Shown piece after piece: positions 1 to 50,447 of a stretch of DNA of 50,447 bases. The stretch lies in IMG/VR virus record IMGVR_UViG_3300046484_000036, positions 1 through 50,447 of that record; one strand, written 5' to 3'. Made by a program: the position numbers and the translations under genes. The notes beneath the pieces are model-generated. The model worked only from the letters and a program-made list of their open reading frames with translations, made no database searches and was not told the origin of the DNA. Origin of the DNA: a virus. How positions within the stretch are numbered: the first letter of the stretch is position 1; every line of letters begins with the position of its first letter.

Positions 1-356
1 CAGTCGGCGTCCAGCGCGTCACGCTTGGCCTGCCAGTCGGCGTCCAGCGGGGCACGCTTAGCCAGGTAGTCGGCGTCCAGCGGGGCACGCTTAGCCAGTA
101 CCTCGGCGTCCAGCGCGTCACGCTCGGCTCGGTAGTCGGCGTCCAGCGGGGCACGCTCGGCTCGGTAGTCGGCGTCCAGCGGGGCACGCTTGGCCTGCCA
201 GTCGGCGTCCAGCGGGGCACGCTTGGCCTGCCAGTCGGCGTCCAGCGGGGCACGCTTAGCCAGGTAGTCGGCGTCCAGCGGGGCACGCTCGGCTCGGTAG
301 TCGGCGTCCAGCGGGGCACGCTTAGCCAGTACCTCGGCGTCCAGCGCGTCACGCTT
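1..356. repeat. 33-bp tandem repeat array A, left part (about 10.8 contiguous units)
   Basis: Units start at 1, 34, 67, 100 ... 331. Consensus is tagtcggcgtccagcggggcacgcttagccagg, with a few variable positions. There are no spacers between units. Confidence 0.95.
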
Positions 357-575
357 GTCACATGTCGAGGCAATAGCGCCGAGGTAGACCATGTTGTGCA
401 GACGGAGCTTCACCTCGCCTTCGGGTTTGTTCGCCTTGACGTAAGCAATACGTTTGTTCACGTCGTGCGAGGTTTCGAACAGGTCGGAGTGGTGGAGGAG
501 GCCAAACCGGCCGGAAATGGGGCCAGTGTAGTTGGGGCGTCCGGGAAAGAGGACGTTGGGGGTTTCAGTTGTCAT
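1..575 (-). CDS. Hendecad-repeat protein A, N-terminal part (gene runs off the left edge and continues at the right edge of the window)
   Basis: Absent from the ORF track because there is no stop inside the window. ATG at 575-573. Hand translation: MTTETPNVLFPGRPNYTGPISGRFGLLHHSDLFETSHDVNKRIAYVKANKPEGEVKLRLHNMVYLGAIASTCDKRDALDAEVLAKRAPLDADY... The frame stays open to base 1. From about 356 downward it reads 11-aa units K-R-A-P-L-D-A-D-(Y/W)-x-A. Confidence 0.7.
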   Translation of the reverse strand, partial: MTTETPNVLFPGRPNYTGPISGRFGLLHHSDLFETSHDVNKRIAYVKANKPEGEVKLRLHNMVYLGAIASTCDKRDALDAEVLAKRAPLDADYRAERAPLDADYLAKRAPLDADWQAKRAPLDADWQAKRAPLDADYRAERAPLDADYRAERDALDAEVLAKRAPLDADYLAKRAPLDADWQAKRDALDAD

Positions 576-579
576 AAGA

Positions 580-714
580 TTAAAGGGGGATTGGTACGTT
601 AAATGTCCAAAGCTCAATCGGGGTTTCGTATCCAAGGGAGGTGGGGAAGTCCGGGTTATGGACGCAATAATCAGTAAGCTCTAAAAGCGAGCGGAAGAGG
701 GTGCGGATTTTCAT
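580..714 (-). CDS. Small hypothetical protein (44 aa)
   Basis: Below the track cut-off. ATG at 714-712, TAA at 582-580. Hand translation: MKIRTLFRSLLELTDYCVHNPDFPTSLGYETPIELWTFNVPIPL. It fills the gap between 719..1015 and the ATG at 575 with 4-nt spacers on both sides. Confidence 0.35.
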   Translation of the reverse strand: MKIRTLFRSLLELTDYCVHNPDFPTSLGYETPIELWTFNVPIPL

Positions 715-718
715 GGGG

Positions 719-1015
719 TCACTTCTTCGGGGATTTCAGGGAAGCGTAATACGCATCGTTACGCGCCTTGGCTTTCGCCTTCTCGATCTCCCACGGGTCT
801 GGAGCGGCCTGGTCGCCGTGCAGGTAGATCTGCACCAGGTCTGAAGCCTTGCAGTTCTGGCCAGCGACAACGATCCGCATATTGCCCTGGCGGTCTGTAT
901 GGCCTGCACGTCTCCAGCAACGGACAGAATCCGGGGTGGGGCTACGCCAGAAGAACAGGCCGGTCTCCGGGCGGTACTCTAACAGGCGTTTCAGCATTTC
1001 TTGTGTCGGTATCAT
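719..1015 (-). CDS. Paralog of the HNH-endonuclease N-terminal domain, lacking the HNH catalytic block
   Basis: 98 aa. MIPTQEMLKRLLEYRPETGLFFW matches the N-termini of the intact HNH-AP2 genes here (MIPLTQAELQEYLHYNPLTGVFIW at 48814..49308; LKELLSYDPETGVFT at 22560..23069). No DHINGxxxDNRxxNL block is present. Confidence 0.6.
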   Translation of the reverse strand: MIPTQEMLKRLLEYRPETGLFFWRSPTPDSVRCWRRAGHTDRQGNMRIVVAGQNCKASDLVQIYLHGDQAAPDPWEIEKAKAKARNDAYYASLKSPKK

Positions 1016-1019
1016 AAAA

Positions 1020-1553
1020 TCAGGGGTTGAGGGCTGTCCATGCGAGTTTGTTCAGTTCCTCTTCAGCCAAGCGGCGGAACTGAGTGAGGTTCTTAACCGC
1101 CTCGCGGTAGTCATAGTCGAGGCCGCGGATCTCCCGCTGGCAGCGCTCGCGTGCCTCTGCGCGGTCGTTCTGTAGCTGTAGGCGCAGTTCCAGTCGATCG
1201 ATGGCGTTCTGCTGGTGGAGGAGGGCCGTGCGCCCTGGCAGGTCAACGGGCGGGGTGGCGGGCAGCGCAGCACGTAAGATGGCGAGCTGGTGTGCAAGCG
1301 GTGTTCGGTCGCGGGGCAGGAAAGGAGAAGTTTCAGCATCCGACCAGATGCCGTGCAAGTAGAGGCGGGCGAGCTTGTGCGCCGGGTAGACAACCCCATC
1401 GATCTTGATCTGCCAGGGGCCGCCGGTACCAGCACAGCCCGCAGTCGCGCCGGGCTTCAAACGGCGTCCGGGAGGGCTGACCCAGGTAAACCGATTCGTC
1501 TCAGGGTCGTAGTGAAGAACTTCTTTGAGGTACTTTTGGGTTATTTTGGGCAT
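1020..1553 (-). CDS. HNH-endonuclease N-terminal-domain paralog fused to a coiled-coil tail; no HNH block
   Basis: 177 aa. YLKEVLHYDPETNRFTW and YPAHKLARLYLHGIW parallel YQAHRLAWLYTHGTW of the 48814 gene. There is no DHING/DNR motif. The C-terminal half is heptad-like (LELRLQLQNDRAEARERCQREI). Confidence 0.6.
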   Translation of the reverse strand: MPKITQKYLKEVLHYDPETNRFTWVSPPGRRLKPGATAGCAGTGGPWQIKIDGVVYPAHKLARLYLHGIWSDAETSPFLPRDRTPLAHQLAILRAALPATPPVDLPGRTALLHQQNAIDRLELRLQLQNDRAEARERCQREIRGLDYDYREAVKNLTQFRRLAEEELNKLAWTALNP

Positions 1554-2233
1554 TTTGAAATAAACTTGAGGGCTATGGGATGCGACGGGTTTGTGATATC
1601 TCTTCGTGTTTTTGCCTCAAGATCGAAAGTCGGCAGCGGGGCAGATATTAGATGGGGAAATGGGGTGTTGTGTAAGTGGCGCAGTTTGCCAAGTTTGTGG
1701 AAAAGTGGCTGTTGGTGCCATTAGAGACCATTATGCGATTTTGGCCGGGTTATGGCCAGGCAAGAAACATATCAATTGGTTATGCTCGAATGCTCTGTCA
1801 ACGGGTTACGTAATTCTGTCCTTAATACCAGATGAAAACTACAACTGAGGAAATTAGTGGAAATATGTAGATGTAAGGAGTAACGAAATGGGGAGAAGTA
1901 TAATATAGATAGGGGGGGTCTGGCCTACTCTCTGGCCAAAGGGGGGGGTGCAGTGGTTCAAGTTGTTGCCGGTTTGTATGGTTGCAGAAGTCGAGTTTTG
2001 GCCAGAGGAAAACCTATTTGATAGTTCGGTGGTTAGCATTTCTGTAAGACGTTATGTAGCGTCGCTATGTGAAGGAAAGCGTTTAGTCCTTTTTGGGCTT
2101 GGTTAAGGATCTTCAGAGGTGGCCAGTGGCCGAATTGCTTGGACAACCAGAGGTGTAAGCCTTCGGGAGGCCGGTCATGCATGGTTAAAATCACGCACTT
2201 TTCCTTAGAATGATTCTAAGTCTCAATAAGGAC

Positions 2234-2764
2234 TTAACTATTTTGGGGCATTACCGGGAATATTTCTCGCATCAGGTCGGCACGCTTGGCCGCGTAGTCG
2301 GCGAGCAGCGGGGCATGCTTGGCCGCGTAGTCGGCGAGCAGCGGGGCATGCTTGGCCGCGTAGTCGGCGAGCAGCGGGGCACACTTGGCCGCGTAGTCGG
2401 CGTACAGCGCGTCACGCTTGGCCACGTAGTCGGCGTACAGCGGGGCACACTTGGCCTCGTAGTCGGCGAGCTTAGATGGGTTGGCGTTGCGTTTATCTGC
2501 CAGCCATTCCATCCAGTCGCCACGAGGGCATTTCGCCCAGGCAGTTTCGAGATCCGGCATGGAGTTTTTACGGCACCATGCGAGAGCGTCATGGCAAGCG
2601 CCAAGTTTTACGAGAGTAGAGATAGGGGTGTTCATCTTAAACAAAATAAGTTGGGTTGAGGTGTGAAAGGATTCTGTGTGCACGGTCGCAGCTCCAGGGA
2701 ACCGCGTTGAACGTGTAGACGGCGTTATTGACTGGGGGAGGCGAACAGACCAGGAGAAGGGCAA
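2234..2764 (-). CDS. Hendecad-repeat protein B (unique N-terminal domain plus about 6 x 11-aa repeats)
   Basis: 176 aa. This is the only frame that extends out of the array into a non-repetitive N-terminal domain (MNTPISTLVKLGACHDALAWCRKNSMPDLETAWAKCPRGDWMEWL is the more likely start). Repeats read ADYAAK(H/C/R)APLL. The C-terminal tail is REIFPVMPQNS. Confidence 0.75.
   Translation of the reverse strand: MPFSWSVRLPQSITPSTRSTRFPGAATVHTESFHTSTQLILFKMNTPISTLVKLGACHDALAWCRKNSMPDLETAWAKCPRGDWMEWLADKRNANPSKLADYEAKCAPLYADYVAKRDALYADYAAKCAPLLADYAAKHAPLLADYAAKHAPLLADYAAKRADLMREIFPVMPQNS
2272..2473. repeat. 33-bp tandem repeat array B (5 full units at 2294, 2327, 2360, 2393, 2426, plus partial flanking units)
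   Basis: Unit is gtagtcggcgagcagcggggcatgcttggccgc. About 27/33 positions match the array A consensus. The segment agcgcgtcacgcttggcc is shared exactly with array A units. Confidence 0.95.
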
Positions 2765-2788
2765 GAGTTAGCATGGCGGGTTAAACGG

Positions 2789-2932
2789 TTAAGACTTGGC
2801 CCTTTCCGCTTCGATAAGTGCGAGTGCTTCAATGCAGGTCATTCCGTAGTACTCGGCGAATCTCGCGACAGTGAGAAAGTCATTAACGTAGGAGAGGTAT
2901 AATTCCCGGCGGGTTTTAGTGGATGTTTTCAT
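2789..2932 (-). CDS. Small hypothetical protein (47 aa)
   Basis: Internal ATG at 2932 of track ORF 2789..2998 gives MKTSTKTRRELYLSYVNDFLTVARFAEYYGMTCIEALALIEAERAKS. A purine-rich aaaggaa lies upstream. A start at 2998 would overlap the previous gene. Confidence 0.5.
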   Translation of the reverse strand: MKTSTKTRRELYLSYVNDFLTVARFAEYYGMTCIEALALIEAERAKS

Positions 2933-2967
2933 AGGTGGTTTAATTCCTTTTGATTGGTTTTGGTTGC

Positions 2968-3255
2968 TCAAGCGGTTTCCAGTTGATCGGAAAGCCATGG
3001 GCTTGCATCCAATCGCTTAGCATCCTTCGCAACGCGCAGACCGTATTGGACTAATAGCCGACGAAACTCAGGTTTGACGGGCTCCCCAATCTCGCAAAAG
3101 AGTGAAGAGCAAAACCCGATGCGTCCACCGCCGGGAATAGTGTAACGGAAGCGAATAGAGCCATCGCTCAGGACGGCAATGGTGGCACTGTATTCCGTTG
3201 TGTGGTTAAAAAGAAACGTGCGGACTACTTTGGGCTGACTGATGTCTGTTTTCAT
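2968..3255 (-). CDS. Hypothetical early protein (95 aa)
   Basis: Track ORF, co-oriented and tightly spaced with its neighbours. No motif recognised. Confidence 0.55.
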   Translation of the reverse strand: MKTDISQPKVVRTFLFNHTTEYSATIAVLSDGSIRFRYTIPGGGRIGFCSSLFCEIGEPVKPEFRRLLVQYGLRVAKDAKRLDASPWLSDQLETA

Positions 3256-3282
3256 GGTGAATTAAGAGCTAGTGGATCTGAG

Positions 3283-3783
3283 TTACTGATTGGTAAACGC
3301 GTCTGCGAATGCGGTGGCCTTGGCTTCGTCGTAGGCTTTCCACGCGGGGGCCTTGGCTTCGTCGTAGGCTTTCCACGCGGGGGCCTTGGCTTCGTCGTAG
3401 GCTTTCCACGCGGTGGCCGTGGCTTCGTCGTAGGCTTTCCACGCGGGGGCCTTGGCTTCGTCGTAGGCTTTCCACGCGGTGGCCTTGGCTTCGTCGTAGG
3501 CTTTCCACGCGGGGGCCTTGGCTTCGTCGTAGGCTTTCCACGCGGTGGCCGTGGCTTCGTCGTAGGCTTTCCACGCGGTGGCCGTGGCTTCGTCGTAGGC
3601 TTTCCACGCGGGGGCCGTGAGCAAGTGGCCTGCTGCCCAACCCCAATCAAAAACGGAGGCATGTTTGAGGCACAGCTCGCGGGTCGGGGTTATCGAGGAG
3701 TTTCCGAAAAGTTCGGAGAACTTGGCTACTTGCGCAGAGCACGCGTCTAGGCGTTTTAGGGTTTTTAGGGATATGGCTTTCAT
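3283..3783 (-). CDS. Hendecad-repeat protein C (57-aa N-terminal domain plus about 9.5 x AWKAYDEA(K/T)A(P/T))
   Basis: 166 aa. This is the only frame leaving the array into unique sequence (MKAISLKTLKRLDACSAQVAKFSELFGNSSITPTRELCLKHASVFDWGWAAGHLL). The N-terminal pattern L..L.AC...C...W.W resembles protein B. Confidence 0.75.
   Translation of the reverse strand: MKAISLKTLKRLDACSAQVAKFSELFGNSSITPTRELCLKHASVFDWGWAAGHLLTAPAWKAYDEATATAWKAYDEATATAWKAYDEAKAPAWKAYDEAKATAWKAYDEAKAPAWKAYDEATATAWKAYDEAKAPAWKAYDEAKAPAWKAYDEAKATAFADAFTNQ
3311..3618. repeat. 33-bp tandem repeat array C (9 full units from 3322 plus a leading partial unit)
   Basis: Unit is ggcttcgtcgtaggctttccacgcg(g/t)gggcc(t/g)t. Units are identical except at two biallelic positions. 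Confidence 0.95.
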
Positions 3784-4101: not shown

Positions 4102-4168
4102 TTAACGACCTGCGTCCGGTCTGTGTTTGTTTCTGTTCTCTTTCGACGTGCCTAATATCGTCTTTTCT

Positions 4169-4207
4169 CTGAAAACAATCAATAGAAATTTTCTATTTAA
4201 TTGCCAA
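4169..4207. promoter_or_regulatory. Overlapping divergent sigma70-like promoters around a 17-bp palindrome (candidate operator)
   Basis: Minus strand: TTGGCA (4207-4202), 17-nt spacer, TATTGA (4184-4179). Plus strand: cTGAAA (4169-4174), 18-nt spacer, TATTTA (4193-4198). The palindrome aatagaaa-t-tttctatt at 4181-4197 lies in both spacers. The region is AT-rich and sits between divergent gene starts at 4101 and 4288. Confidence 0.4.
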
Positions 4208-4287
4208 TTGCTAGATAATAGGAAGTTAAGAAGTGTTTTTGTTTCAATAGGTTGACCTTTTCAGTTTAAATATCCATTTGATTGCGC

Positions 4288-13692: not shown

Positions 13693-16600
13693 ATGCCCGC
13701 CAATGATACTTGGACCCCACCTGAAGTCTCGGCAATAGGGCAAGCGCCGGATACCGGAACTCAGACCGCTTGGCAGCCCCCCGAAGTGGCTGAAACGAAA
13801 TCTTCATGGGTTCCCCCCGAGGTGGCGAGTCTGAGTAAGCCTGCCGCTGATGAAGGCCCGCAACTTCGCGCCGCTACACCGGGGGATGAAACCCGCTGGG
13901 CATCACAAGATACTTGGATGGGGCGTATAGAATCCTCGATTAGGGGTACTGCAACTGATCTCGGCGCGTCTATACAAGGCCGCTATACCGCTGCGCAGAA
14001 GGCTTTTGATACTCGGTATTCTGCGACTCCAGGGGATGGAGCTAAACCGGTATTTCCCGCCCTATTGAGCGCCGCTGGAGCGGCAGTATCGCCTTCGCCC
14101 GGCGAAGCCTTGAACTCTCAGCGGAAAGCAGAATTGGCGGTAGGTGGGGCACAGTCGCTTAAAGAGGCGCAAGAACTCAAAGATGTTCAGGGTAACTATG
14201 AGCACCAGTGGCTCCCGATAGCGGAACCCGGGCAGACTAATTTCTTGGGCCACAGTGATGCAGTTCAGGCGTTGATGAAGCCAATCACTAAAGAAGATGA
14301 CGACACTAAAGTACCTTTTACCGGGGGTACGATCCCCCTAAGTGCAGTAAAGGCGGTATATCAGCCAGTGGCTAAAACAGTAAATTCTCTAGTCACGCCG
14401 GAAAACGCGTTAATAACCGGGCTTACCGCTGGGGCAGGAGAAATTCCGGCAATAGGGAAAGCGGTATCTACATTTTTCGGAGTGCAGATGGGGGCGGGTT
14501 CTCTCCAAGCGGTCAAACATCTTCAGGAGTTAAACTCGGACCCCAATGCCACAGGGGCACAAAAAGTCTCGGCGGGTATAGAAGCGGGGATTGGAGTGGC
14601 AATGGCCAAGTCACTATTAACTCATGCAATTTCTGGGGAGGCGAAGGCGCAGATAGAAACCCTCCCCCCGGAGCAACAATTAGCTGCGGTATCTAAAGAG
14701 GTAGGCACGTCCCCCGAGCAACTACTCAAGGATGCCTCAGATCAGATGGAATTAGACTTCAAAAATAGCAAAGTCGAAGTCCCACCAGAGCATGTCCCCG
14801 TTACGATTCGCCGGGAAGATGGAACGGAGTATCAAGCCGGAATGGCCGGATACCAAGATGGCGTGCCGGTCATCACGAATTTAGAGACGCATTCCACCAC
14901 GCTTTTAGGTGATAAGGAAAATATCGTCGGGGATATGCCTGCGCCAGAACTATGGGAGCGTACCTCCGCGGGTAATAAACTTTCTACTTCTCCGTTTGAG
15001 GAGTGGGTTCCCCCTGAAGTGAGGGGGGAAACTACTCCTACCGCCAACGTGACGGTGATGGGCAGCCATACCCAGGTTGAAATTCCCGGCGAAGGGGATC
15101 GTCCGGCATTCTCCGGTACGCCCGAGCAGGCGCGAGATGCGGGCTTCGACGTGCCGACAGATGGGCTAGAGGACGGGTCGCATAAAGTACCGATTGAGCC
15201 CCCACTCGACCCGAACATAATAGGTATAACCAAGAAGCTCATGAACCAGCGGCGCGTAGCAGCCGGACTCCCGGAGTTTGAACCCTTAGAAGTCCGGTCA
15301 GATCAAGTAACTTGGGACAAGACCTTAGCAAAAGTCGCTGCGGACCCCACTCTCCCAGCGCGCAACATCGAGGAACTTAGGTCGGGTAATCGAGTGCCTA
15401 CGGATGCTGACGAAGCGTTAAACCGATACCGCATTGCAGAACTGGAAGTTGAGAAAACCGAGGCTACTAATCGAGTGAACTCCGCTATAGAGAAGGGCGA
15501 AGTGCCTGATATGGCGGACCGGCAAAAAGTGGAAGAGCTTCTAACCAAGCAAGTGGACGCGATGGATGTCATTCGCGCAAGTCACGCTGAAACGGGACGC
15601 AGTTTACGGGCCATCCAGCTGATGACCGACTTGGATTTTTCCGCCCCGAAACTGATCTCCGAACGTCAGGCGCTCTCCGGGGAAAAACTAACGCCTGAGA
15701 AGATGGCCGAGACTCGCGATATTGCCGAACGAGTCAAGACGACCCAAGCCGCGCTGGAGAAAATCACGGCAGAGCGGGATGCCCTCCTTGCTGAGAAAAC
15801 GTCCAAAGCGGCACACGAAGAGTTGGTCAAGAAAGTCGCGGAGGAAACGGAAGCGCCAGAAGCCGAGAAGCCCGCAAGGGCCAAAACCCCATCGAAACTG
15901 CGCGAGTATATCAAGACCCAGGCCGAAGCCGCCCGGCAGCGTGTGCGCGAGCGTACCGGTGAACTCCATGCGGGTATAGACCCAACACACCTTACCGATT
16001 TGGCGATTATCGGCGTGGAACATCTGACGCGCGCGGGGGAGAACCTCGCTGCCTTCACTAAACGTATGGCGGATGACGTAGGTGAGTGGGTGAAGCCCTA
16101 TATTGAACAGATTTTTGGTGAAGCGAAAAAGATGCGCGATTCGATGGCGAAGGACTTCACCCCGAAAGAAGTGGTGGATGCCATCGGGAAGAAGCTCAGC
16201 ACCGGCGGTGACGTAACCCCTGAATTCCGCAAGTTGGCCCGCGAGGCAATTGAACTCGGCATGACGGATCGCAACCGCGTGATTGACTTCGTGCACGACC
16301 AGATCCGCGAGACCGCTCCCGAGATGGACCGGCGTGCTGTGCAGGACGCTATTTCCGGCTACGGGAAGTTTCGTGAGCTGAGTAAGGACGAGATTACGCA
16401 AAAACTGGCAGACGTATCCGCTCAACTCCGCCTCGTCTCGAAACTGGAGGACATCCTCGCCGGTAAAGAGCCAGAGAAGACCGGGGTTGAGCGCCGGGCT
16501 CCATCGGAAGAGGAGACTGCACTCCGCAACAAGATTGCCGAACTAGAGAAAAAGGCTAATGAAGACGTTGCAGTATCCGCCGCGCTGACTCGTGAGAAAA

Positions 16601-18408
16601 CGGCGATTGAGAAGCAGATCACCGAACTGGAGCGTAAGACTTCAACAGGCGATCTCTCCACCAAAGGACAGAAGGTAAACCGTCCTGCTGCCGATCCTGA
16701 GCTTGAACTTCTGAAACAGCGCCGGGACCAGTTGAACCGCAAGCTGACCGACATGCGTCGTGAGGCCGCGCCGAAAGCAGACCCGAACCAGACTCGGTTG
16801 AAGGCGATGAAGACGCGCCTAGAGAATAGCACGAAAGAGTTTCAGCGTCGCTTGGATGAAGGTGACTTCACCGCGAAGAAACCTCGGGCTCCAATCACCG
16901 ATCCTGCAGTGGAGAAGGCGAAGGCGGAGAACCTAAAAGCTAAACAAGCATATCAGGATGCTTTAGCGCGGGATCGAAACGACAAAGCTGGAATATACGC
17001 TCATGTGGTTAATCGGTTCCTGAAAGTTTACCGTGGATTTATATTAAGTAGTCCTGTGGTGATCGCCAAAATATCGGGCATGTCGGTGTTTCGTGCTATC
17101 TCCCATCAGTTGGATGAGGTTGCGGGGGAAGCTATACATAGACTCCCCGGCGTTTCCCAAGCATCTAAATACGCCCCTATTGAGGGTGGGGGGTACCAGT
17201 TCGATGCTGAGGTACAGGCGTTGACGAAAATTGCCCTGGCGGGCCACGATCTAATAACAAAACTGACTGGTAAGGAGACAGACATCGAGATCCTATGGGG
17301 TAAACACCATGCGGATCTAGCGGACCGCTCCACAACTTTGGGGAAGATAGGTGCGGGGATAGATACCGCGGCCGACTATCCGGGGCAAGTTCATGCCGCA
17401 ATAAAAGCTCCGATTAAACGCCTCGCCTATGAATTTGCAGTAGCGAAGGGGATAAACTGGGCGCGTAATAATGGGTTCGATGTGTACGATCCAGCGGTTA
17501 TAGCCAAGATCAAGATCGCCGCCTATGAGTACGCAAATCGGAATATCGCCATGCAGGATAGTGCTGCATCGAAAAAGATGGGCCAGCTTTTCTCCATTGA
17601 GTATGACAAAGCGACCGGGGAAGCGACCCCCGGTAGCGTAACTGCCCATCTCGTGGGGGGGATAGTTCTCCCAGTGAAAAAAGTACCGGTTAATATCGTA
17701 GCAGAGGCTTTCGAGTACTTAGCCGGGACAGAGACGGGGTCTATTCGGCTGGCTAAAGCCCTTTATCAGGGGGTAGAAACTCTGAAGGATAATCCCGCCC
17801 AGGCGGATATGATTATGCGGGAACTCAAAAAGGGGGTAGTGGGTAAGGCCATACTGCTCCTCGGATTTTTTACCGCAGAATCAATTGGCGGATTGTACGA
17901 CCCGAAGAACAAGAAGCGTCCGGACGAAACTCAGGCGGGCGAGGTACGCATACCCTGGCTATCGGGACTGGTTAAAAACGGGGATGTTCCGGCATACCTA
18001 CTCCATCACCCAATGATGGAGGATCTACAATTCTCAGCCTCTATTTTTCATGGACTTAATGCCCCTCTCCGCATCCCGACCACCCATAAAGGTATGCTTG
18101 CCGCTCTCGCTAAAGGGGAGGCTACGCCTCTTGAAGTTACGGCAAATGCTTTATTTGATCTCGCGGCAGAAGTGCCTTTGGCCCGAACCGCAACGACGGT
18201 GGCGAAGTTAGCGAACTCGAATACTCGTCCAGCAGCGGCGAAAGACATTCTCCAGGGCATCGTCGTTCCCCAGGGGCTCTCTTGGGTCGCTCGGTACACG
18301 GACAAGAACGCTCAAGGCGAGCCGATCAAGCGTGAGGCCACGACAACCGTGGAGCACATCAAGGAAGCGGTCCCCGGATTGCGCGAAACACTGCCGGTCA
18401 AAAAATAA
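13693..18408 (+). CDS. Giant internal virion / ejection protein (1571 aa)
   Basis: Longest ORF in the window, with a long Glu/Lys/Ala coiled-coil centre. Four W-x-P-P-E-V motifs occur in the first 440 aa. Its size and its position after two smaller low-complexity proteins resemble T7 gp14-16 logic (inference). Confidence 0.55.
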   Translation: MPANDTWTPPEVSAIGQAPDTGTQTAWQPPEVAETKSSWVPPEVASLSKPAADEGPQLRAATPGDETRWASQDTWMGRIESSIRGTATDLGASIQGRYTAAQKAFDTRYSATPGDGAKPVFPALLSAAGAAVSPSPGEALNSQRKAELAVGGAQSLKEAQELKDVQGNYEHQWLPIAEPGQTNFLGHSDAVQALMKPITKEDDDTKVPFTGGTIPLSAVKAVYQPVAKTVNSLVTPENALITGLTAGAGEIPAIGKAVSTFFGVQMGAGSLQAVKHLQELNSDPNATGAQKVSAGIEAGIGVAMAKSLLTHAISGEAKAQIETLPPEQQLAAVSKEVGTSPEQLLKDASDQMELDFKNSKVEVPPEHVPVTIRREDGTEYQAGMAGYQDGVPVITNLETHSTTLLGDKENIVGDMPAPELWERTSAGNKLSTSPFEEWVPPEVRGETTPTANVTVMGSHTQVEIPGEGDRPAFSGTPEQARDAGFDVPTDGLEDGSHKVPIEPPLDPNIIGITKKLMNQRRVAAGLPEFEPLEVRSDQVTWDKTLAKVAADPTLPARNIEELRSGNRVPTDADEALNRYRIAELEVEKTEATNRVNSAIEKGEVPDMADRQKVEELLTKQVDAMDVIRASHAETGRSLRAIQLMTDLDFSAPKLISERQALSGEKLTPEKMAETRDIAERVKTTQAALEKITAERDALLAEKTSKAAHEELVKKVAEETEAPEAEKPARAKTPSKLREYIKTQAEAARQRVRERTGELHAGIDPTHLTDLAIIGVEHLTRAGENLAAFTKRMADDVGEWVKPYIEQIFGEAKKMRDSMAKDFTPKEVVDAIGKKLSTGGDVTPEFRKLAREAIELGMTDRNRVIDFVHDQIRETAPEMDRRAVQDAISGYGKFRELSKDEITQKLADVSAQLRLVSKLEDILAGKEPEKTGVERRAPSEEETALRNKIAELEKKANEDVAVSAALTREKTAIEKQITELERKTSTGDLSTKGQKVNRPAADPELELLKQRRDQLNRKLTDMRREAAPKADPNQTRLKAMKTRLENSTKEFQRRLDEGDFTAKKPRAPITDPAVEKAKAENLKAKQAYQDALARDRNDKAGIYAHVVNRFLKVYRGFILSSPVVIAKISGMSVFRAISHQLDEVAGEAIHRLPGVSQASKYAPIEGGGYQFDAEVQALTKIALAGHDLITKLTGKETDIEILWGKHHADLADRSTTLGKIGAGIDTAADYPGQVHAAIKAPIKRLAYEFAVAKGINWARNNGFDVYDPAVIAKIKIAAYEYANRNIAMQDSAASKKMGQLFSIEYDKATGEATPGSVTAHLVGGIVLPVKKVPVNIVAEAFEYLAGTETGSIRLAKALYQGVETLKDNPAQADMIMRELKKGVVGKAILLLGFFTAESIGGLYDPKNKKRPDETQAGEVRIPWLSGLVKNGDVPAYLLHHPMMEDLQFSASIFHGLNAPLRIPTTHKGMLAALAKGEATPLEVTANALFDLAAEVPLARTATTVAKLANSNTRPAAAKDILQGIVVPQGLSWVARYTDKNAQGEPIKREATTTVEHIKEAVPGLRETLPVKK

Positions 18409-46211: not shown

Positions 46212-48836
46212 TCATAGGGAAAGTAATGCACCTCGCTCGTCCAACGTGCTGCCGTTCAACCGGCTGCGGGCGGCGTCCTGCGCGTCACCTTTGAACTTAG
46301 TGAGGTGCGTCCAAAGGGTATGACGGGTTTGCGAGGTCTTGTCGTTGCCCAAGCGTATCCTAGCGTTGGATACGAAACCCATCTCGCGCAGAACAGCGGA
46401 GAGACCCTGGTCGGAGAAGAAGCCGATGCCGCGCTGGGTCTCCAGCAGTGAGTGCAGGCTCTTTAGGCTTACGAGGTCGGGCTGTACGAGGGGATGGTCG
46501 CCGTCCTCCAGGGCTTCACGGATGGCGGCGGCGAGGGGGGAAGCCGACGCGCCGAGCATCTGGAGCAGGTAGTCCGTGACCGGGGCATGGCCGTCCGCAT
46601 CGAACGCGGCGCTGATCTTACGGTTCTCAAGGAAGTGACGCACGCCCGCAGCTTTGTTGAACACGACGTCATACACTTTTTTGTAATACGCAGCGGGGAT
46701 CGCCTGCACCTGCTCGCGGGTCTGTAGTGCTGAGAACAGTACGAAGTAGCGGCGCTCGTCCTCGCTCGGGGCGATGGCGTCCTGATGGTTGGTGAGTAAC
46801 AAATAGTTCGTCGTGTTGGGCTCCTCCACTGCTTCCGTGTTCATCCGGCGTACCGTAATGCGGTCATTCGAGATGCGGGGTTTAAGCATGTTCATCACCT
46901 GATGCCGTGCCGTTCCAATCACTCGGATCTCCTCCACGCACGCGAGCTGACTGCCGGAACTCCAGCCGGTGAACTTATCGAAGAGAGTCGCACCGTCCAC
47001 GAGCTTGACGTTGGTGGGGCCGAGCACCTGGCGCATCATCTCAGCGAACACCGTCTTGCCGCAACCCTGCGCGCCCTGGAGCAGTGGTGCCCAGCGGATC
47101 TTCTTGCCGGGTTGCTGAACCAAGCAACAGCACCAATCGAGGAAGAGTGAGCGGTTCTCTGGTTCAACGATTAACTTATCCAGATGCGTCGATATGACAT
47201 CCTCCGCTTCTGCGGCTAATGCGGGATCGGCTTCGGGATATAATGGGCGATAAGTATTCAAATACCGTTTGCCTGCATCGAGGAGGTATACCTCGTGCGG
47301 ATTTGCTGGGTCATATCTATAACCGTCTACGCGGGGAATGCGCAGGATGTTCAGCAGGAAGTCCTGAGGACGAGTGGCAGGTTTGCCGCTGTCTCCCGGT
47401 TCTTTCTCGCCAACGCCCATAAGTCTCACGCCGTACATGCTGTCCAGCACGTTGGGCGCGAACTGCCGACCACTGGCACGCACGAAAAATTCATTCTCAC
47501 TTGCTACATAGGTCATGCCGCGTGCCCACGGGGGGAGCTGACTATCCGGGAGCGGAGCAACCTTGGCGTCGGGGTCAAAGCCGAGACGAGCTTCCAGCTT
47601 CTTTAATTTGGTCTTGAGGTCCGCTAGCGAGACTCCCATCCCAAGCGCGGTCAGAGATTTCCCTAGATGCTTCAACAATACAAGCCGCTCTAATGGGTCC
47701 AATAAGGGCGCGGAAGCAATGAGCTTCATGCCCTCCCTCATTAGTTCTGCCGACGAGTGATCCCCTTGAATCCACGCTAGTACAGATCGGAAGGTCTTCT
47801 GAGTGAGCACGATGGGCGACATCCCGCCTTCGACGGCGAGATGGAATAGGGAGCGGAGAGTCACGGGGGCTCTGGATGTAGGGTTGGGCACTAGCGATTT
47901 CCACTTGGCCTGCGTTTCCTCCTGCCCAGTATACTTGCTGCCTCCGCTGCTCCATTTGTCAAATGCCTCAAAGGCTGCATGGTCCTCCTCAGAACTTCCG
48001 CTAAACTGGTGGCGGAGAGCCGCAGCTACACTTAACCATGCGGCGTAACCAATATCCGGCGAAATAAATCCGAGGGCGTTTTGGACTTCTGCCAGGGTAA
48101 TATTGCTCATGCGAGGCGTCAAAAAGTCCAACGGATCACCAGATGCCACGGCTCCCGTTTTGCGGGGGCTGACTGAAACGACGCCCCCCGGTGAAACGTC
48201 GGTCGTAACTGGTTCCCCCTCTTCCTCGACGATCAAAAGCGGGGAGTGTATGGCCTCGTCTTCCCCTGCGAATAACACAGGTAAAAACATTGCCTGACAA
48301 CAGGTTAGGCTTTCTGGAGTGACCGCCTTCAACCCCAGTCGGGAGGCGATGTATTTCACTGCGTCTTTATACCCTTCCGGCGGTATCCGGTGAGCGGATA
48401 CGACGATGCGGGCACGTGGAGCCGCCTCAGTCGATGACGCCGTGGTATACATCAAGAATGGGTGCGGAGACAAAGCCGAGCGGAGTAGCTCTGGGTTCGC
48501 CACAAACGGCGCGGCGTCGTGGGCGTCGTCTATATCTATCGCAACCAAATCGCACGCCTCTACGTTTTCCAGGCGGCGCTCCGTAATGCCCGGTTTAAGT
48601 GAACAGGGCACAAAAAAGGGCGTCCTTTTCACCTTGTCCCTGTCCGCTTTCGCAAGTGCAGCATACTGTAATCTCGTGGTGTTTAACAAAACAGACTGGC
48701 CGAAAACTTCCCGGCAAAGTGTGCGCCAATCTTTGGCGGCAAGGGGTTTCACCTTACCCAAATTGCTGGCTTCACCGCCAAAATAGGTACCTGAAATTAG
48801 TTCTGGCATATAGTTACTTACGTTTGAATTCACCAA
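46212..48836 (-). CDS. Primase-helicase (N-terminal prim-pol-like domain plus VirE/D5-type P-loop NTPase)
   Basis: 874 aa. Acidic motif LVAIDIDDAHD, Walker A LLQGAQGCGKTVF, Walker B-like LACVEEI. Confidence 0.8.
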   Translation of the reverse strand: MVNSNVSNYMPELISGTYFGGEASNLGKVKPLAAKDWRTLCREVFGQSVLLNTTRLQYAALAKADRDKVKRTPFFVPCSLKPGITERRLENVEACDLVAIDIDDAHDAAPFVANPELLRSALSPHPFLMYTTASSTEAAPRARIVVSAHRIPPEGYKDAVKYIASRLGLKAVTPESLTCCQAMFLPVLFAGEDEAIHSPLLIVEEEGEPVTTDVSPGGVVSVSPRKTGAVASGDPLDFLTPRMSNITLAEVQNALGFISPDIGYAAWLSVAAALRHQFSGSSEEDHAAFEAFDKWSSGGSKYTGQEETQAKWKSLVPNPTSRAPVTLRSLFHLAVEGGMSPIVLTQKTFRSVLAWIQGDHSSAELMREGMKLIASAPLLDPLERLVLLKHLGKSLTALGMGVSLADLKTKLKKLEARLGFDPDAKVAPLPDSQLPPWARGMTYVASENEFFVRASGRQFAPNVLDSMYGVRLMGVGEKEPGDSGKPATRPQDFLLNILRIPRVDGYRYDPANPHEVYLLDAGKRYLNTYRPLYPEADPALAAEAEDVISTHLDKLIVEPENRSLFLDWCCCLVQQPGKKIRWAPLLQGAQGCGKTVFAEMMRQVLGPTNVKLVDGATLFDKFTGWSSGSQLACVEEIRVIGTARHQVMNMLKPRISNDRITVRRMNTEAVEEPNTTNYLLLTNHQDAIAPSEDERRYFVLFSALQTREQVQAIPAAYYKKVYDVVFNKAAGVRHFLENRKISAAFDADGHAPVTDYLLQMLGASASPLAAAIREALEDGDHPLVQPDLVSLKSLHSLLETQRGIGFFSDQGLSAVLREMGFVSNARIRLGNDKTSQTRHTLWTHLTKFKGDAQDAARSRLNGSTLDERGALLSL

Positions 48837-49308
48837 AAATTTCTGTGGCTTTTGCCTCGTAGACCGCGCTTGCGGCTTCGGGGGTGGGGAAGCATCCTAG
48901 ATACTTAGTTACCCCGCGGACTGATATTTGCGCCTGCCACTTCTTTACCCTTCTGTGCCAGACTACTCCCCGGAAATGTGAAGTATTATCTTTGGGGAGT
49001 TTTACATTGCTGGAGTTCTGGTGTGCCGTAGCCTCCCGAAGGTTTGCTATTCGGTTATCCAACCCGTTCCCGTTTATGTGGTCGATCTGGTCTTTTGGCC
49101 ATGTGCCGTGGGTGTATAGCCAAGCTAGTCGATGCGCCTGATATTTACGTCCGTATATAGATATTATGCGGTAGCCTCGATGATTATTAGTCCCAGCTAT
49201 GTCTCCTGGGGGCATATTACGCGATAGAGCCTCCAGCCAAATAAATACACCTGTAAGCGGATTGTAATGCAAGTACTCCTGAAGTTCGGCTTGTGTTAGT
49301 GGGATCAT
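48814..49308 (-). CDS. HNH endonuclease with AP2-type DNA-binding domain
   Basis: IDHINGNGLDNRIANLREATAHQN (HNH) and FRGVVWHRRVKKWQAQISVRGVTKYLGCFPTPEAASAVYEAKATEIFGEF (AP2). Confidence 0.9.
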   Translation of the reverse strand: MIPLTQAELQEYLHYNPLTGVFIWLEALSRNMPPGDIAGTNNHRGYRIISIYGRKYQAHRLAWLYTHGTWPKDQIDHINGNGLDNRIANLREATAHQNSSNVKLPKDNTSHFRGVVWHRRVKKWQAQISVRGVTKYLGCFPTPEAASAVYEAKATEIFGEFKRK

Positions 49309-50140: not shown

Positions 50141-50447
50141 TCAGTCCTCCGTCCCGGTTAGCTTCTTCCCATTCCAGGCACAGTCTGGCATGACTGTTTT
50201 TATATACGCCAGTACCTCGGCGTCCAGCGCGTCACGCTTGGCCTGCCAGTCGGCGTCCAGCGGGGCACGCTTAGCCAGGTAGTCGGCGTCCAGCGGGGCA
50301 CGCTTAGCCAGGTAGTCGGCGTCCAGCGGGGCACGCTTAGCCTGCCAGTCGGCGTCCAGCGTGCCCCGCTTAGCCTGCCAGTCGGCGTCCAGCGTGCCCC
50401 GCTTAGCCTGCCAGTCGGCGTCCAGCGCGTCACGCTTGGCCTGCCAG
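50141..50447 (-). CDS. Hendecad-repeat protein A, C-terminal part (continuation of the gene starting at 575)
   Basis: In the repeat frame, the hand translation ends ...LDADWQAKRDALDAEVLAYIKTVMPDCAWNGKKLTGTED with TGA at 50143-50141. The frame matches that of 1..575 under either a direct join or a 36-nt overlap. The tail YIKTVMPD resembles EIFPVMPQ of protein B. Confidence 0.7.
   Translation of the reverse strand, partial: WQAKRDALDADWQAKRGTLDADWQAKRGTLDADWQAKRAPLDADYLAKRAPLDADYLAKRAPLDADWQAKRDALDAEVLAYIKTVMPDCAWNGKKLTGTED
50214..50447. repeat. 33-bp tandem repeat array A, right part (7 units plus 3 nt)
   Basis: Units start at 50214, 50247 ... 50412. The last 36 nt (50412-50447) are identical to positions 1-36. 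Confidence 0.95.

Follow-up and report, generated by a model that had tools for sequence, protein, structure and literature searches.

Long helices with an 11-residue (hendecad) periodicity are known to serve as stalks, as in the RHCC of tetrabrachion, the undecad stalks of trimeric autotransporters such as NadA, and Scy/FilP. The tube of the phiX174 H protein contains three hendecads (PMC7354561). Here we describe three minus-strand genes, A, B and C, of an uncultivated virus (IMG/VR virus record IMGVR_UViG_3300046484_000036, positions 1 to 50,447; this whole 50,447-nucleotide stretch is hereafter called the window), in which a head of unique sequence is followed by a tandem array of 33-bp units encoding 11-residue repeats and by a short tail. 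These genes resemble the hendecad coiled coils and stalks in their 11-residue periodicity corresponding to three turns, in the long rigid helix that would act as a stalk, and, less clearly, in an apolar stripe at positions a/d/e/h. On the other hand, their stripe is made of Ala and Pro with Tyr, Trp or Leu beside it rather than of Leu and Ile, their units are near-identical DNA repeats with copy-number polymorphism, and their products are small, predicted cytoplasmic proteins of the early region with interchangeable heads, for which no sequence homology to the hendecad stalks was demonstrated.

Apolipoprotein A-I, alpha-synuclein, group 3 LEA proteins and perilipins are also built of tandem 11-mers (or 22-mers) with Pro, and arrays B and C have in common with them a hydrophobic moment peak at about 98°. 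Unlike these proteins, A, B and C are of phage origin, possess globular heads and tails and have a neutral or acidic charge; they show no homology to this group, and array A is not amphipathic. Siphophage tape-measure proteins (TMPs) likewise contain tandem 11-residue helical units with W or F, which in TMPs set physical length. The matches obtained by tblastn between array C and TMP repeat regions are weak (E = 1e-3 to 1e-2, 20-24 % identity), and TMPs exceed 600 residues and belong to the tail module, whereas A, B and C comprise 133-293 residues, have unrelated heads and are encoded upstream of replication genes. Finally, the prophage genes hyvI and hyvII of 'Candidatus Liberibacter asiaticus' are described, in the passage of PMC3862640 that cites Zhou et al. 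2011, as carrying in-frame near-identical repeats whose number varies between similar genomes. In A, B and C, as in these genes and in other intragenic in-frame variable number of tandem repeats (VNTR) or contingency genes, the repeat number varies between otherwise similar genomes. The unit and the protein families are different, however, the unit coincides with the structural period of an alpha-helix, and the module is common to many heads. Length-variable tandem-repeat helical proteins are already known, and our literature search found no earlier paper on the present module, nor any description of a shared hendecad stalk module, of its head diversity or of its quantised polymorphism.

We judge, with slightly better than even confidence, that this uncultivated lytic phage encodes in A, B and C proteins of a head-stalk-tail type, in which the array forms a rigid 11/3 helix. 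Three different small heads would each be joined by a continuous helix to a short conserved tail. Since 11 residues would make three turns of an 11/3 helix, the gain or loss of one 33-bp unit should change the stalk by about 1.6 nm according to standard helix geometry, while keeping the reading frame and probably also the rotational setting of head versus tail. Unit number, which does vary among relatives, would shift by slipped-strand mispairing or unequal recombination, and arrays A and B are alike enough in DNA to recombine with each other, swapping heads and tails. The conserved face of the helix (an Ala stripe, Tyr/Leu and a Lys/Asp pair) may support hendecad-type coiled-coil self-association or partner binding, in which case the stalk would be a rigid, length-tunable spacer or an oligomerisation rod displaying the heads, and the position of the genes suggests that the proteins act early, in the cytoplasm, on a host or phage target. 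If this is true, they would stand for a very large class of proteins from phage early regions that has so far escaped study (more than 4,000 clusters at 50 % identity for head C alone) and for a helical ruler in which the DNA unit equals the structural period, so that length evolves in steps with frame and geometry intact. They would also offer a natural system for how spacer length tunes protein action and an example of repeat-mediated domain shuffling in phage genomes.

Three genes with in-frame 33-bp arrays

Tandem Repeats Finder (TRF) returned four period-33 rows in the window, with scores of 302-556, far above chance: two for array A, at 2-357 (10.8 copies, 86 % matches) and 50217-50447 (7.0 copies, 91 % matches), one for array B at 2279-2471 (5.8 copies, 90 % matches) and one for array C at 3311-3616 (9.3 copies, 96 % matches). 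All arrays sit in-frame in minus-strand open reading frames (ORFs) with unique N-terminal parts. TRF and the ORF translations therefore agree on the three genes with in-frame arrays of 11-residue units that had been proposed in a first-pass annotation of this DNA; the units, which that annotation called perfect, are in fact 86-98 % identical.

Gene C spans 3283-3783 on the minus strand (166 aa). Its head (3616..3783, L..LkrldACsaQV..F..lFG....T.elC..hA..FDWgWAA.hLL) is followed by 9.3 units of AWKAYDEA(K/T)A(P/T) (3310..3615) and by the tail AFADAFTNQ with the stop codon (3283..3309), whose family motif A(F/Y)..A(F/Y/W) recurs. Only two nucleotide positions vary among the nine units, each with a nonsynonymous change: an A/C alternative at each site within 3310-3615 gives K or T at position 9 and P or T at position 11, in the combinations KAP, KAT and TAT but never TAP. 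An identical or near-identical gene C was not found beyond the window, either in protein records or in IMG/VR and JGI metagenome DNA.

Gene B, on the same strand, had been extended to a TTG at 2764. Its homologues P0241-P0249 begin at an equivalent Met, so that the start is most likely the ATG at 2635 and the gene would span 2234-2635 (133 aa). The head (2474..2635, LVKLGACHDALAWCR...LETAW.KCPRGDWMEWL) precedes about 6 units of the form K.APL.ADYAA (2273..2473), more precisely K(C/R/H)APL(Y/L)ADYAA, and the tail LMREIFPVMPQNS with the stop codon (2234..2272) is kept in P0241-P0243, P0246 and P0249.

Gene A is more delicate to delineate. If the window is circular, it runs on the minus strand from 575 to 1 and then from 50447 to 50141 (882 nt, 293 aa), with a 73-residue head, 18 units and the tail YIKTVMPDCAWNGKKLTGTED. 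The units are of the types KRAPLDADY(R/L)A, KRAPLDADWQA, KRDALDAEVLA and KRGTLDADWQA. In translation, the head (residues 1-73, 357..575) reads LFPGRPNYTGP...LLHH...E.SHDV..R..YVK.NKP...RLHNMVYLG; it is kept in 189 metagenomic homologues, in which H28, H29, E34, R42, K50 and R58 are invariant. The window boundary cuts the array into a first part with units 1 to about 10.8 (1..356) and a second part of about 7 units that reaches the window junction (50207..50447). The tail and stop codon follow at 50141..50206, and the tail motif AE(I/V)LAYIK..IPDCAWNGK.L is found in 92 classified homologues, with P, D, W and L invariant. Both window ends fall within the sole irregular unit of the array, which measures 36 bp (KRDALDADCWQA, minus-strand 26..1 and 50447..50438). 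There, CAG is duplicated exactly at the junction (GACTG/CTGGCAG, the stroke marking the junction), which adds a Cys codon to the gene, and the frame is continuous across the junction only through this 36-bp unit with its 3-nt duplication. The junction is probably a circularisation or assembly artefact. With the boundary and the duplication both falling in array A, neither the join nor the extra Cys can be relied on, and the same applies to the unit count of gene A.

One repeat module with many heads

Homologues detected at E <= 1e-3, all of them metagenomic, number 364 for C, 189 for A and 137 for B, and their common architecture is a head, n × 11 residues and a short tail. At least six unrelated heads bear the same repeat module (A, B, C, E, F and DUF7666; in addition, a pentapeptide-repeat region is joined to head C in P0266). 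Motif classification of 327 retrieved proteins gave head A with tail A in 92 and without a recognisable tail in 12, head C in 94, head E with its own tail in 13, head B in 10 and head F in 2. Each repeat flavour is found on roughly half of the head-C proteins by a crude motif count that misfiles some of them, e.g. P0037 and P0074; clear ADY-type repeats on head C are those of P0254, P0301, P0304 and P0271. The remaining head, DUF7666 (PF24703), was Pfam-confirmed in 4 of the 327 proteins (P0004, P0064, P0085 and P0119), where it constitutes an alternative head fused to the same KAY-type repeat; its profile has no match in A, B or C of the window. Two head-C proteins, P0047 and P0301, bear the precomputed label PF27195, and certain relatives bear PF28068, likewise as precomputed annotation. 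Furthermore, P0325 joins the gene B head to an Imm5_like domain in place of repeats, and P0079 has an A-like head (BLASTP, 37 % over 43 residues, E = 1e-5) with the KAY flavour.

The consensus units of arrays A and B are about 82 % identical at the DNA level, and array C represents another flavour. Because units such as APAWAEYERVR (P0344) are intermediate between APAWKAYDEAK of C and APLYADYEAKR of A and B, we treat all flavours as what appears to be one repeat, with the consensus x-x-Y-[DE]-x-x-[KR]-A-P-[AL]-[WY]. The three genes had been regarded as paralogues. The repeat module is indeed common to all of them, but their heads differ, that of A being an unrelated alpha/beta domain, so that paralogy holds for the stalk only. 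As for heads B and C, which were said to share a pattern, they have in common only the first ~24 residues with an L..L.GAC motif (hhalign probability of 71 %).

Metagenomes contain large families of these proteins and ladders of unit number. With a profile of head C alone, 4,217 clusters at 50 % identity were hit through their representatives at a cut-off of E <= 0.001; at E <= 1e-10 there were 1,516. In nearly all of the 150 best matches the head continues into an 11-mer helix, degenerate to a varying degree, that is followed by an 'ARAF..AF' tail. Outside metagenomes the families are hardly visible. The A and C families have no GenBank phage match by tblastn, and among 185,579 species genomes there was no match to the A family and a single one to the C family, on a 3.6-kb contig of a metagenome-assembled genome. 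Megablast and tblastn searches of GenBank phages with the region, with A, B and C and with consensus-like queries gave nothing except the weak TMP-repeat matches.

As first noted, the N-terminal domains could not be assigned to a family of known function, and the same holds for the tails: no head has a significant Pfam or PHROG match, and for the A head none was obtained in the PDB either. Pfam, PHROGs, NCBIfam and PADLOC, applied to A, B and C, to the isolated heads and to the neighbouring genes, returned low-complexity or coiled-coil noise only. The match to Rpf1_C, which reached 25 bits without any stretch at the domain level, was set aside as such, and so were those to DivIVA/Wag31, Scy, ATP synthase b, Gam and Lpp. 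At the level of the arrays, the weak matches of A to a Microviridae pilot protein (PHROG, E = 0.002), of P0003 and P0047 to Scy and of C to DivIVA (NCBIfam) reflect common helical character only.

Unit-number polymorphism and recombination

That these proteins vary in length by whole units was expected from the sequence of the arrays and is directly seen in relatives; it is in those relatives that the polymorphism described here was measured. Head and tail lie 47-113 residues apart in the C family, with the same phase modulo 11 in 21 of 22 proteins; in the A family a single phase accounts for 46 of 85 proteins. The closest relatives of the window are L005 (an ENA contig of 11.3 kb) and L006/L020 (IMG/VR 3300031918_000041, 49.7 kb). 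L005 and L006 are 98.9 % identical, yet their B genes differ by exactly 165 bp, that is 5 units: gene B has about 6 units in the window, about 8 in L005 and about 13 in L006. Gene A has about 18 units in the window versus about 8 in L005, and A arrays of IMG/VR relatives reach 15-17 units.

Clusters at 90 % identity form ladders of protein length (90/101/112/134/145/156, 107/118/129/140/162/173/184/195 and 78/111/122/144). Of 481 pairs of unequal length within such clusters, 258 are separated by a multiple of 11 residues, where chance would give 9 %; these pairs are interdependent, and truncation affects many of the other proteins. Genome-length contigs of 28,062, 28,095, 28,194 and 28,227 bp carry alleles of 141, 152, 185 and 196 residues, respectively (+33, +132 and +165 bp), and some alleles recur on 15-51 contigs (51 and 15 for two alleles of one cluster). 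These loci thus present both features of an in-frame VNTR, namely a unit that is a multiple of 3 inside an ORF and a unit number that differs between near-identical genomes.

The arrays of A and B in L005 cross-match each other and the window arrays at 80-93 % in DNA. Chimeric genes with a B head and an A tail (P0244, P0245 and P0248) indicate that recombination occurs inside the arrays. One B-head/A-tail chimera occupies the place of both genes, and after it come the same 72- and 139-residue genes as after A in the window; another adjoins a complete A gene.

The stalk as a predicted 11/3 helix

Structures were predicted as AlphaFold2 monomers with family alignments, the A family being modelled through the orthologue P0122. 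The gene C model comprises a small four-helix head (residues 1-54, predicted local distance difference test score, pLDDT, above 90) and a single unbroken helix (57-164), with a mean pLDDT of 96.1. The P0122 model displays an alpha/beta head (1-72), a single helix (75-166) and a short tail, with a mean pLDDT of 93.4. An 11-residue periodicity therefore runs along a long predicted helix, as in hendecad proteins (TRF period 33, helices of 92-108 residues), and these helices, together with the helical wheel, bear out the 11/3 periodicity that had been recognised at first reading. On the 11/3 wheel, an Ala stripe lies at the hendecad a/d/e/h positions. In arrays A and B the core-like stripe reads A4-A8-A1-P5, and in array C it reads A4-A8-A1-Y5, with the larger L6 and Y10, or W2, beside it. 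A broad face is made up of the conserved positions (A8-A1-D9-K2-L6-Y10 for A and B, A10-K3-E7-A4-A8-A1-Y5 for C), and the variable positions form a contiguous stripe (3, 7, 11 and 4 in arrays A and B; 9, 2 and 6 in array C). Foldseek found nothing at E <= 0.001 with both models against the PDB and with the C model against BFVD, and profile searches of PDB sequences gave no match. A GIY-YIG assignment of the A head was rejected (E = 4.6, non-significant).

A more far-reaching proposal, which we consider possible without regarding it as probable, is that the 33-bp arrays constitute an exchangeable 'stalk cassette' common to uncultivated phages. It would offer distance steps of about 1.6 nm at fixed orientation between a head and its tail, or a second head within an oligomeric rod, together with homology for head and tail swaps between genes and between phages. 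Were it true, the arrays would be the phage counterpart of bacterial contingency loci, and the variable stripe and the fast changes in length would be marks of an arms race, fought against a target in the host or a sensor of its defence.

Selection on the coding frame

In such arrays every frame is open, so that ORFs alone prove nothing; the claim that the arrays are coding in the annotated frame is nevertheless upheld by the substitution patterns of both flavours. In C-type arrays from 23 loci, A1, K3, A4, Y5, E7, A8 and A10 are kept while all synonymous codons are used, the third positions of the four-fold Ala codons (1, 4, 8 and 10) having an entropy of 1.5-1.9 bits. For the A-type unit, the annotated frame has a ratio of nonsynonymous to synonymous divergence (pN/pS) of 0.47, the lowest among the open frames. 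The codons of the A-type units are nearly fixed (GCC AAG CGN GCC CCG CTG GAC GCC GAC TAC GAG), Ala1 being GCC in 120 of 128 units and codon 5 always NCG. This low synonymous divergence is absent from C-type arrays; a hidden overlapping ORF was considered as its source and dropped, the annotated frame having the lowest pN/pS. In P0381 a normal C-type head is followed by the repeat in a shifted frame (CGVPARLRSGR...), and gene callers or assemblies mis-frame such arrays at times.

Weighing the alternatives

Several points weigh against the head-stalk-tail reading. Natural alleles with only 1-2 units exist (P0246, P0248 and P0337), which means that a long stalk is not essential and that its length may be neutral. 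Ala dominates the core-like stripe, an uncommon composition for a stable coiled coil, and AlphaFold-type models tend to render long repeats as confident straight helices regardless of the truth. Moreover, a contig end cuts the A- or C-family gene in 20 of the 62 IMG/VR loci, which indicates that short-read assemblers break at these arrays, and part of the copy-number variation could be repeat collapse or expansion by such assemblers. Three contigs both start and end in a repeat gene, two in an A-family gene and one in a C-family gene. The loci concerned by contig-end breaks include L006/L020, L009/L019, L044/L055 and L070. Contig ends, 'circular' joins and gene lengths at such arrays should consequently not be trusted without long reads.

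The best-surviving alternative, which we nonetheless regard as doubtful, is that the arrays are neutral minisatellites, i.e. tolerant helical linkers in which slippage has no adaptive value and function lies in the head and the tail only. The occurrence of the 1-2-unit alleles alongside alleles of 8-18 units in the same families and clusters is what it would predict, and the near identity of the C units in DNA suggests a recent expansion. Yet in many lineages the units have diverged in their codons and exposed residues and still keep 7-8 conserved positions, which indicates that each unit is under purifying selection. The conserved phase modulo 11 and the retention of the module with many unrelated heads also speak against it.

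It was also envisaged, in the first-pass annotation, that amphipathic 11/3 helices bind membranes, which we consider unlikely: the helices would lie flat on the host inner membrane, a lipid or another interface and anchor the head. The 11-residue periodicity with proline punctuation is compatible with such a role, and the hydrophobic moments at 98.2° of arrays C (0.26) and B (0.31) are near those obtained by the same method for alpha-synuclein (0.26) and apolipoprotein A-I (0.36), tetrabrachion giving 0.36; the best PDB fold match of C is apolipoprotein A-I (3r2p), although it is non-significant (E = 4.7). Array A, on the other hand, has a moment of 0.07, its two apolar stripes being split by the conserved Asp and Lys. 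The arrays carry a net charge of 0 to -5, whereas helices that attach peripherally to the anionic membranes of bacteria are usually cationic. Conservation extends over more than half of the helix circumference and includes charged residues, no match to apolipoproteins, LEA_4, synuclein or perilipin was obtained (Pfam at E <= 1, NCBIfam at E <= 0.1), and neither a signal peptide nor a transmembrane segment was seen on sequence inspection. We grade the amphipathic claim as weak.

Considerably less credible is a function at the DNA or RNA level, in which the arrays would be origin iterons or recombination hot spots close to the replication genes and the protein repeat a by-product. In 13 A-family genes (the A-type arrays being those of the window, L005, L007 and L009-L018), pS is 0.80 in the head and 0.83 in the tail, both saturated, versus 0.31 in the consensus unit, with pN similar. 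Such a function would explain this difference, and would suit the location of the arrays just upstream of the primase gene as well as a unit of 33 bp, close to three DNA turns. The contrast in pS is however inflated, as a consensus sequence is slow-evolving by construction, and C-type arrays exhibit free synonymous turnover with residues kept. Furthermore, the arrays seen here lie in frame, lengths within clusters change mostly by complete units, pN/pS is lowest in the annotated frame, and the repeat occurs in thousands of proteins in varied contexts. The least probable of all is that the arrays, or their lengths, result from short-read assembly of a much shorter repeat: the position of the window ends inside array A with a 3-nt duplication at the join, the contigs starting and ending in the same repeat gene and the third or so of related loci that are cut would fit, but hundreds of independent ENA, JGI, NCBI and Logan assemblies contain 2-17 diverged, non-identical units, the same alleles are found on many contigs (51 and 15), every four-unit stretch of array C is unique on inspection and can be resolved by a k = 141 graph, and only the unit count of A is really in doubt.

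Genomic surroundings

The head-stalk-tail genes lie, as first proposed, at the start of the leftward block, at the promoter-proximal end of an operon that leads to the primase gene, and the same location is found in relatives. From an A+T-rich divergent intergenic region (4102..4281, no strand assigned), the minus-strand order is a 73-aa ORF, C, 95-aa and 69-aa ORFs, B and a 680-bp ORF-free stretch, followed by two ORFs similar to the N-terminus of HNH proteins (HNH-N-like), a 44-aa ORF, A, 76-aa and 139-aa ORFs, HNH and primase. The ORF layout makes the divergent region the presumed start of both the leftward operon and the rightward block, and it may hold their promoters; a sigma-70 scan found no enrichment at 4102-4281 and a terminator scan was uninformative. 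An A homologue lies upstream of the primase gene in L005 and in a 45-kb relative, in the same arrangement. From this position, A, B and C are probably expressed early; the host-takeover or anti-defence role suggested in the first-pass annotation is conceivable.

The only PHROGs recognised in the window are primase, DNA polymerase, exonuclease, helicase and a weak DarB-like match. The latter concerns residues 573-1092 of a 1,571-residue ORF on the plus strand (13693-18408), which weakly match a DarB-like antirestriction protein (phrog_10089). The window has no DNA or structural-protein match among GenBank phages, and its DNA polymerase shares only about 30 % identity with those of known phages and thus gives no clue to the host. 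Neither a tRNA nor an Rfam family was found in the window. A Shine-Dalgarno-like sequence is present upstream of about 10 of 45 inspected ORFs and of none of A, B and C, which hints at a host with weak Shine-Dalgarno usage.

Two minus-strand ORFs between B and A, 1020-1553 (177 aa) and 719-1015 (98 aa), match only the N-terminal 65-70 residues of the HNH family phrog_99. Both resemble the N-terminus of the complete HNH gene at 48814-49308 and look like truncated or domain-only paralogues of it. Between B and the next gene, a 680-bp stretch (1554-2233) has no convincing ORF and is 92 % identical to L005 and L006. A non-coding RNA or an origin was considered for this stretch and rejected (no Rfam or tRNA match, RNA folding z-score of +1.16), and the flanking coding block is equally conserved, so that no special element is evidenced there.

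Compared with L005, the window has a mosaic block from about 2800, through position 1, to about 50160, that is from just upstream of B to the end of A, which is 75-97 % identical (mostly 82-97 %). Past A, the identity of the genes is only about 55-70 %. L005 lacks a counterpart of the C region and has a DUF7222 gene there. This mosaic pattern of identity suggests a recent horizontal exchange of the B-to-A segment.

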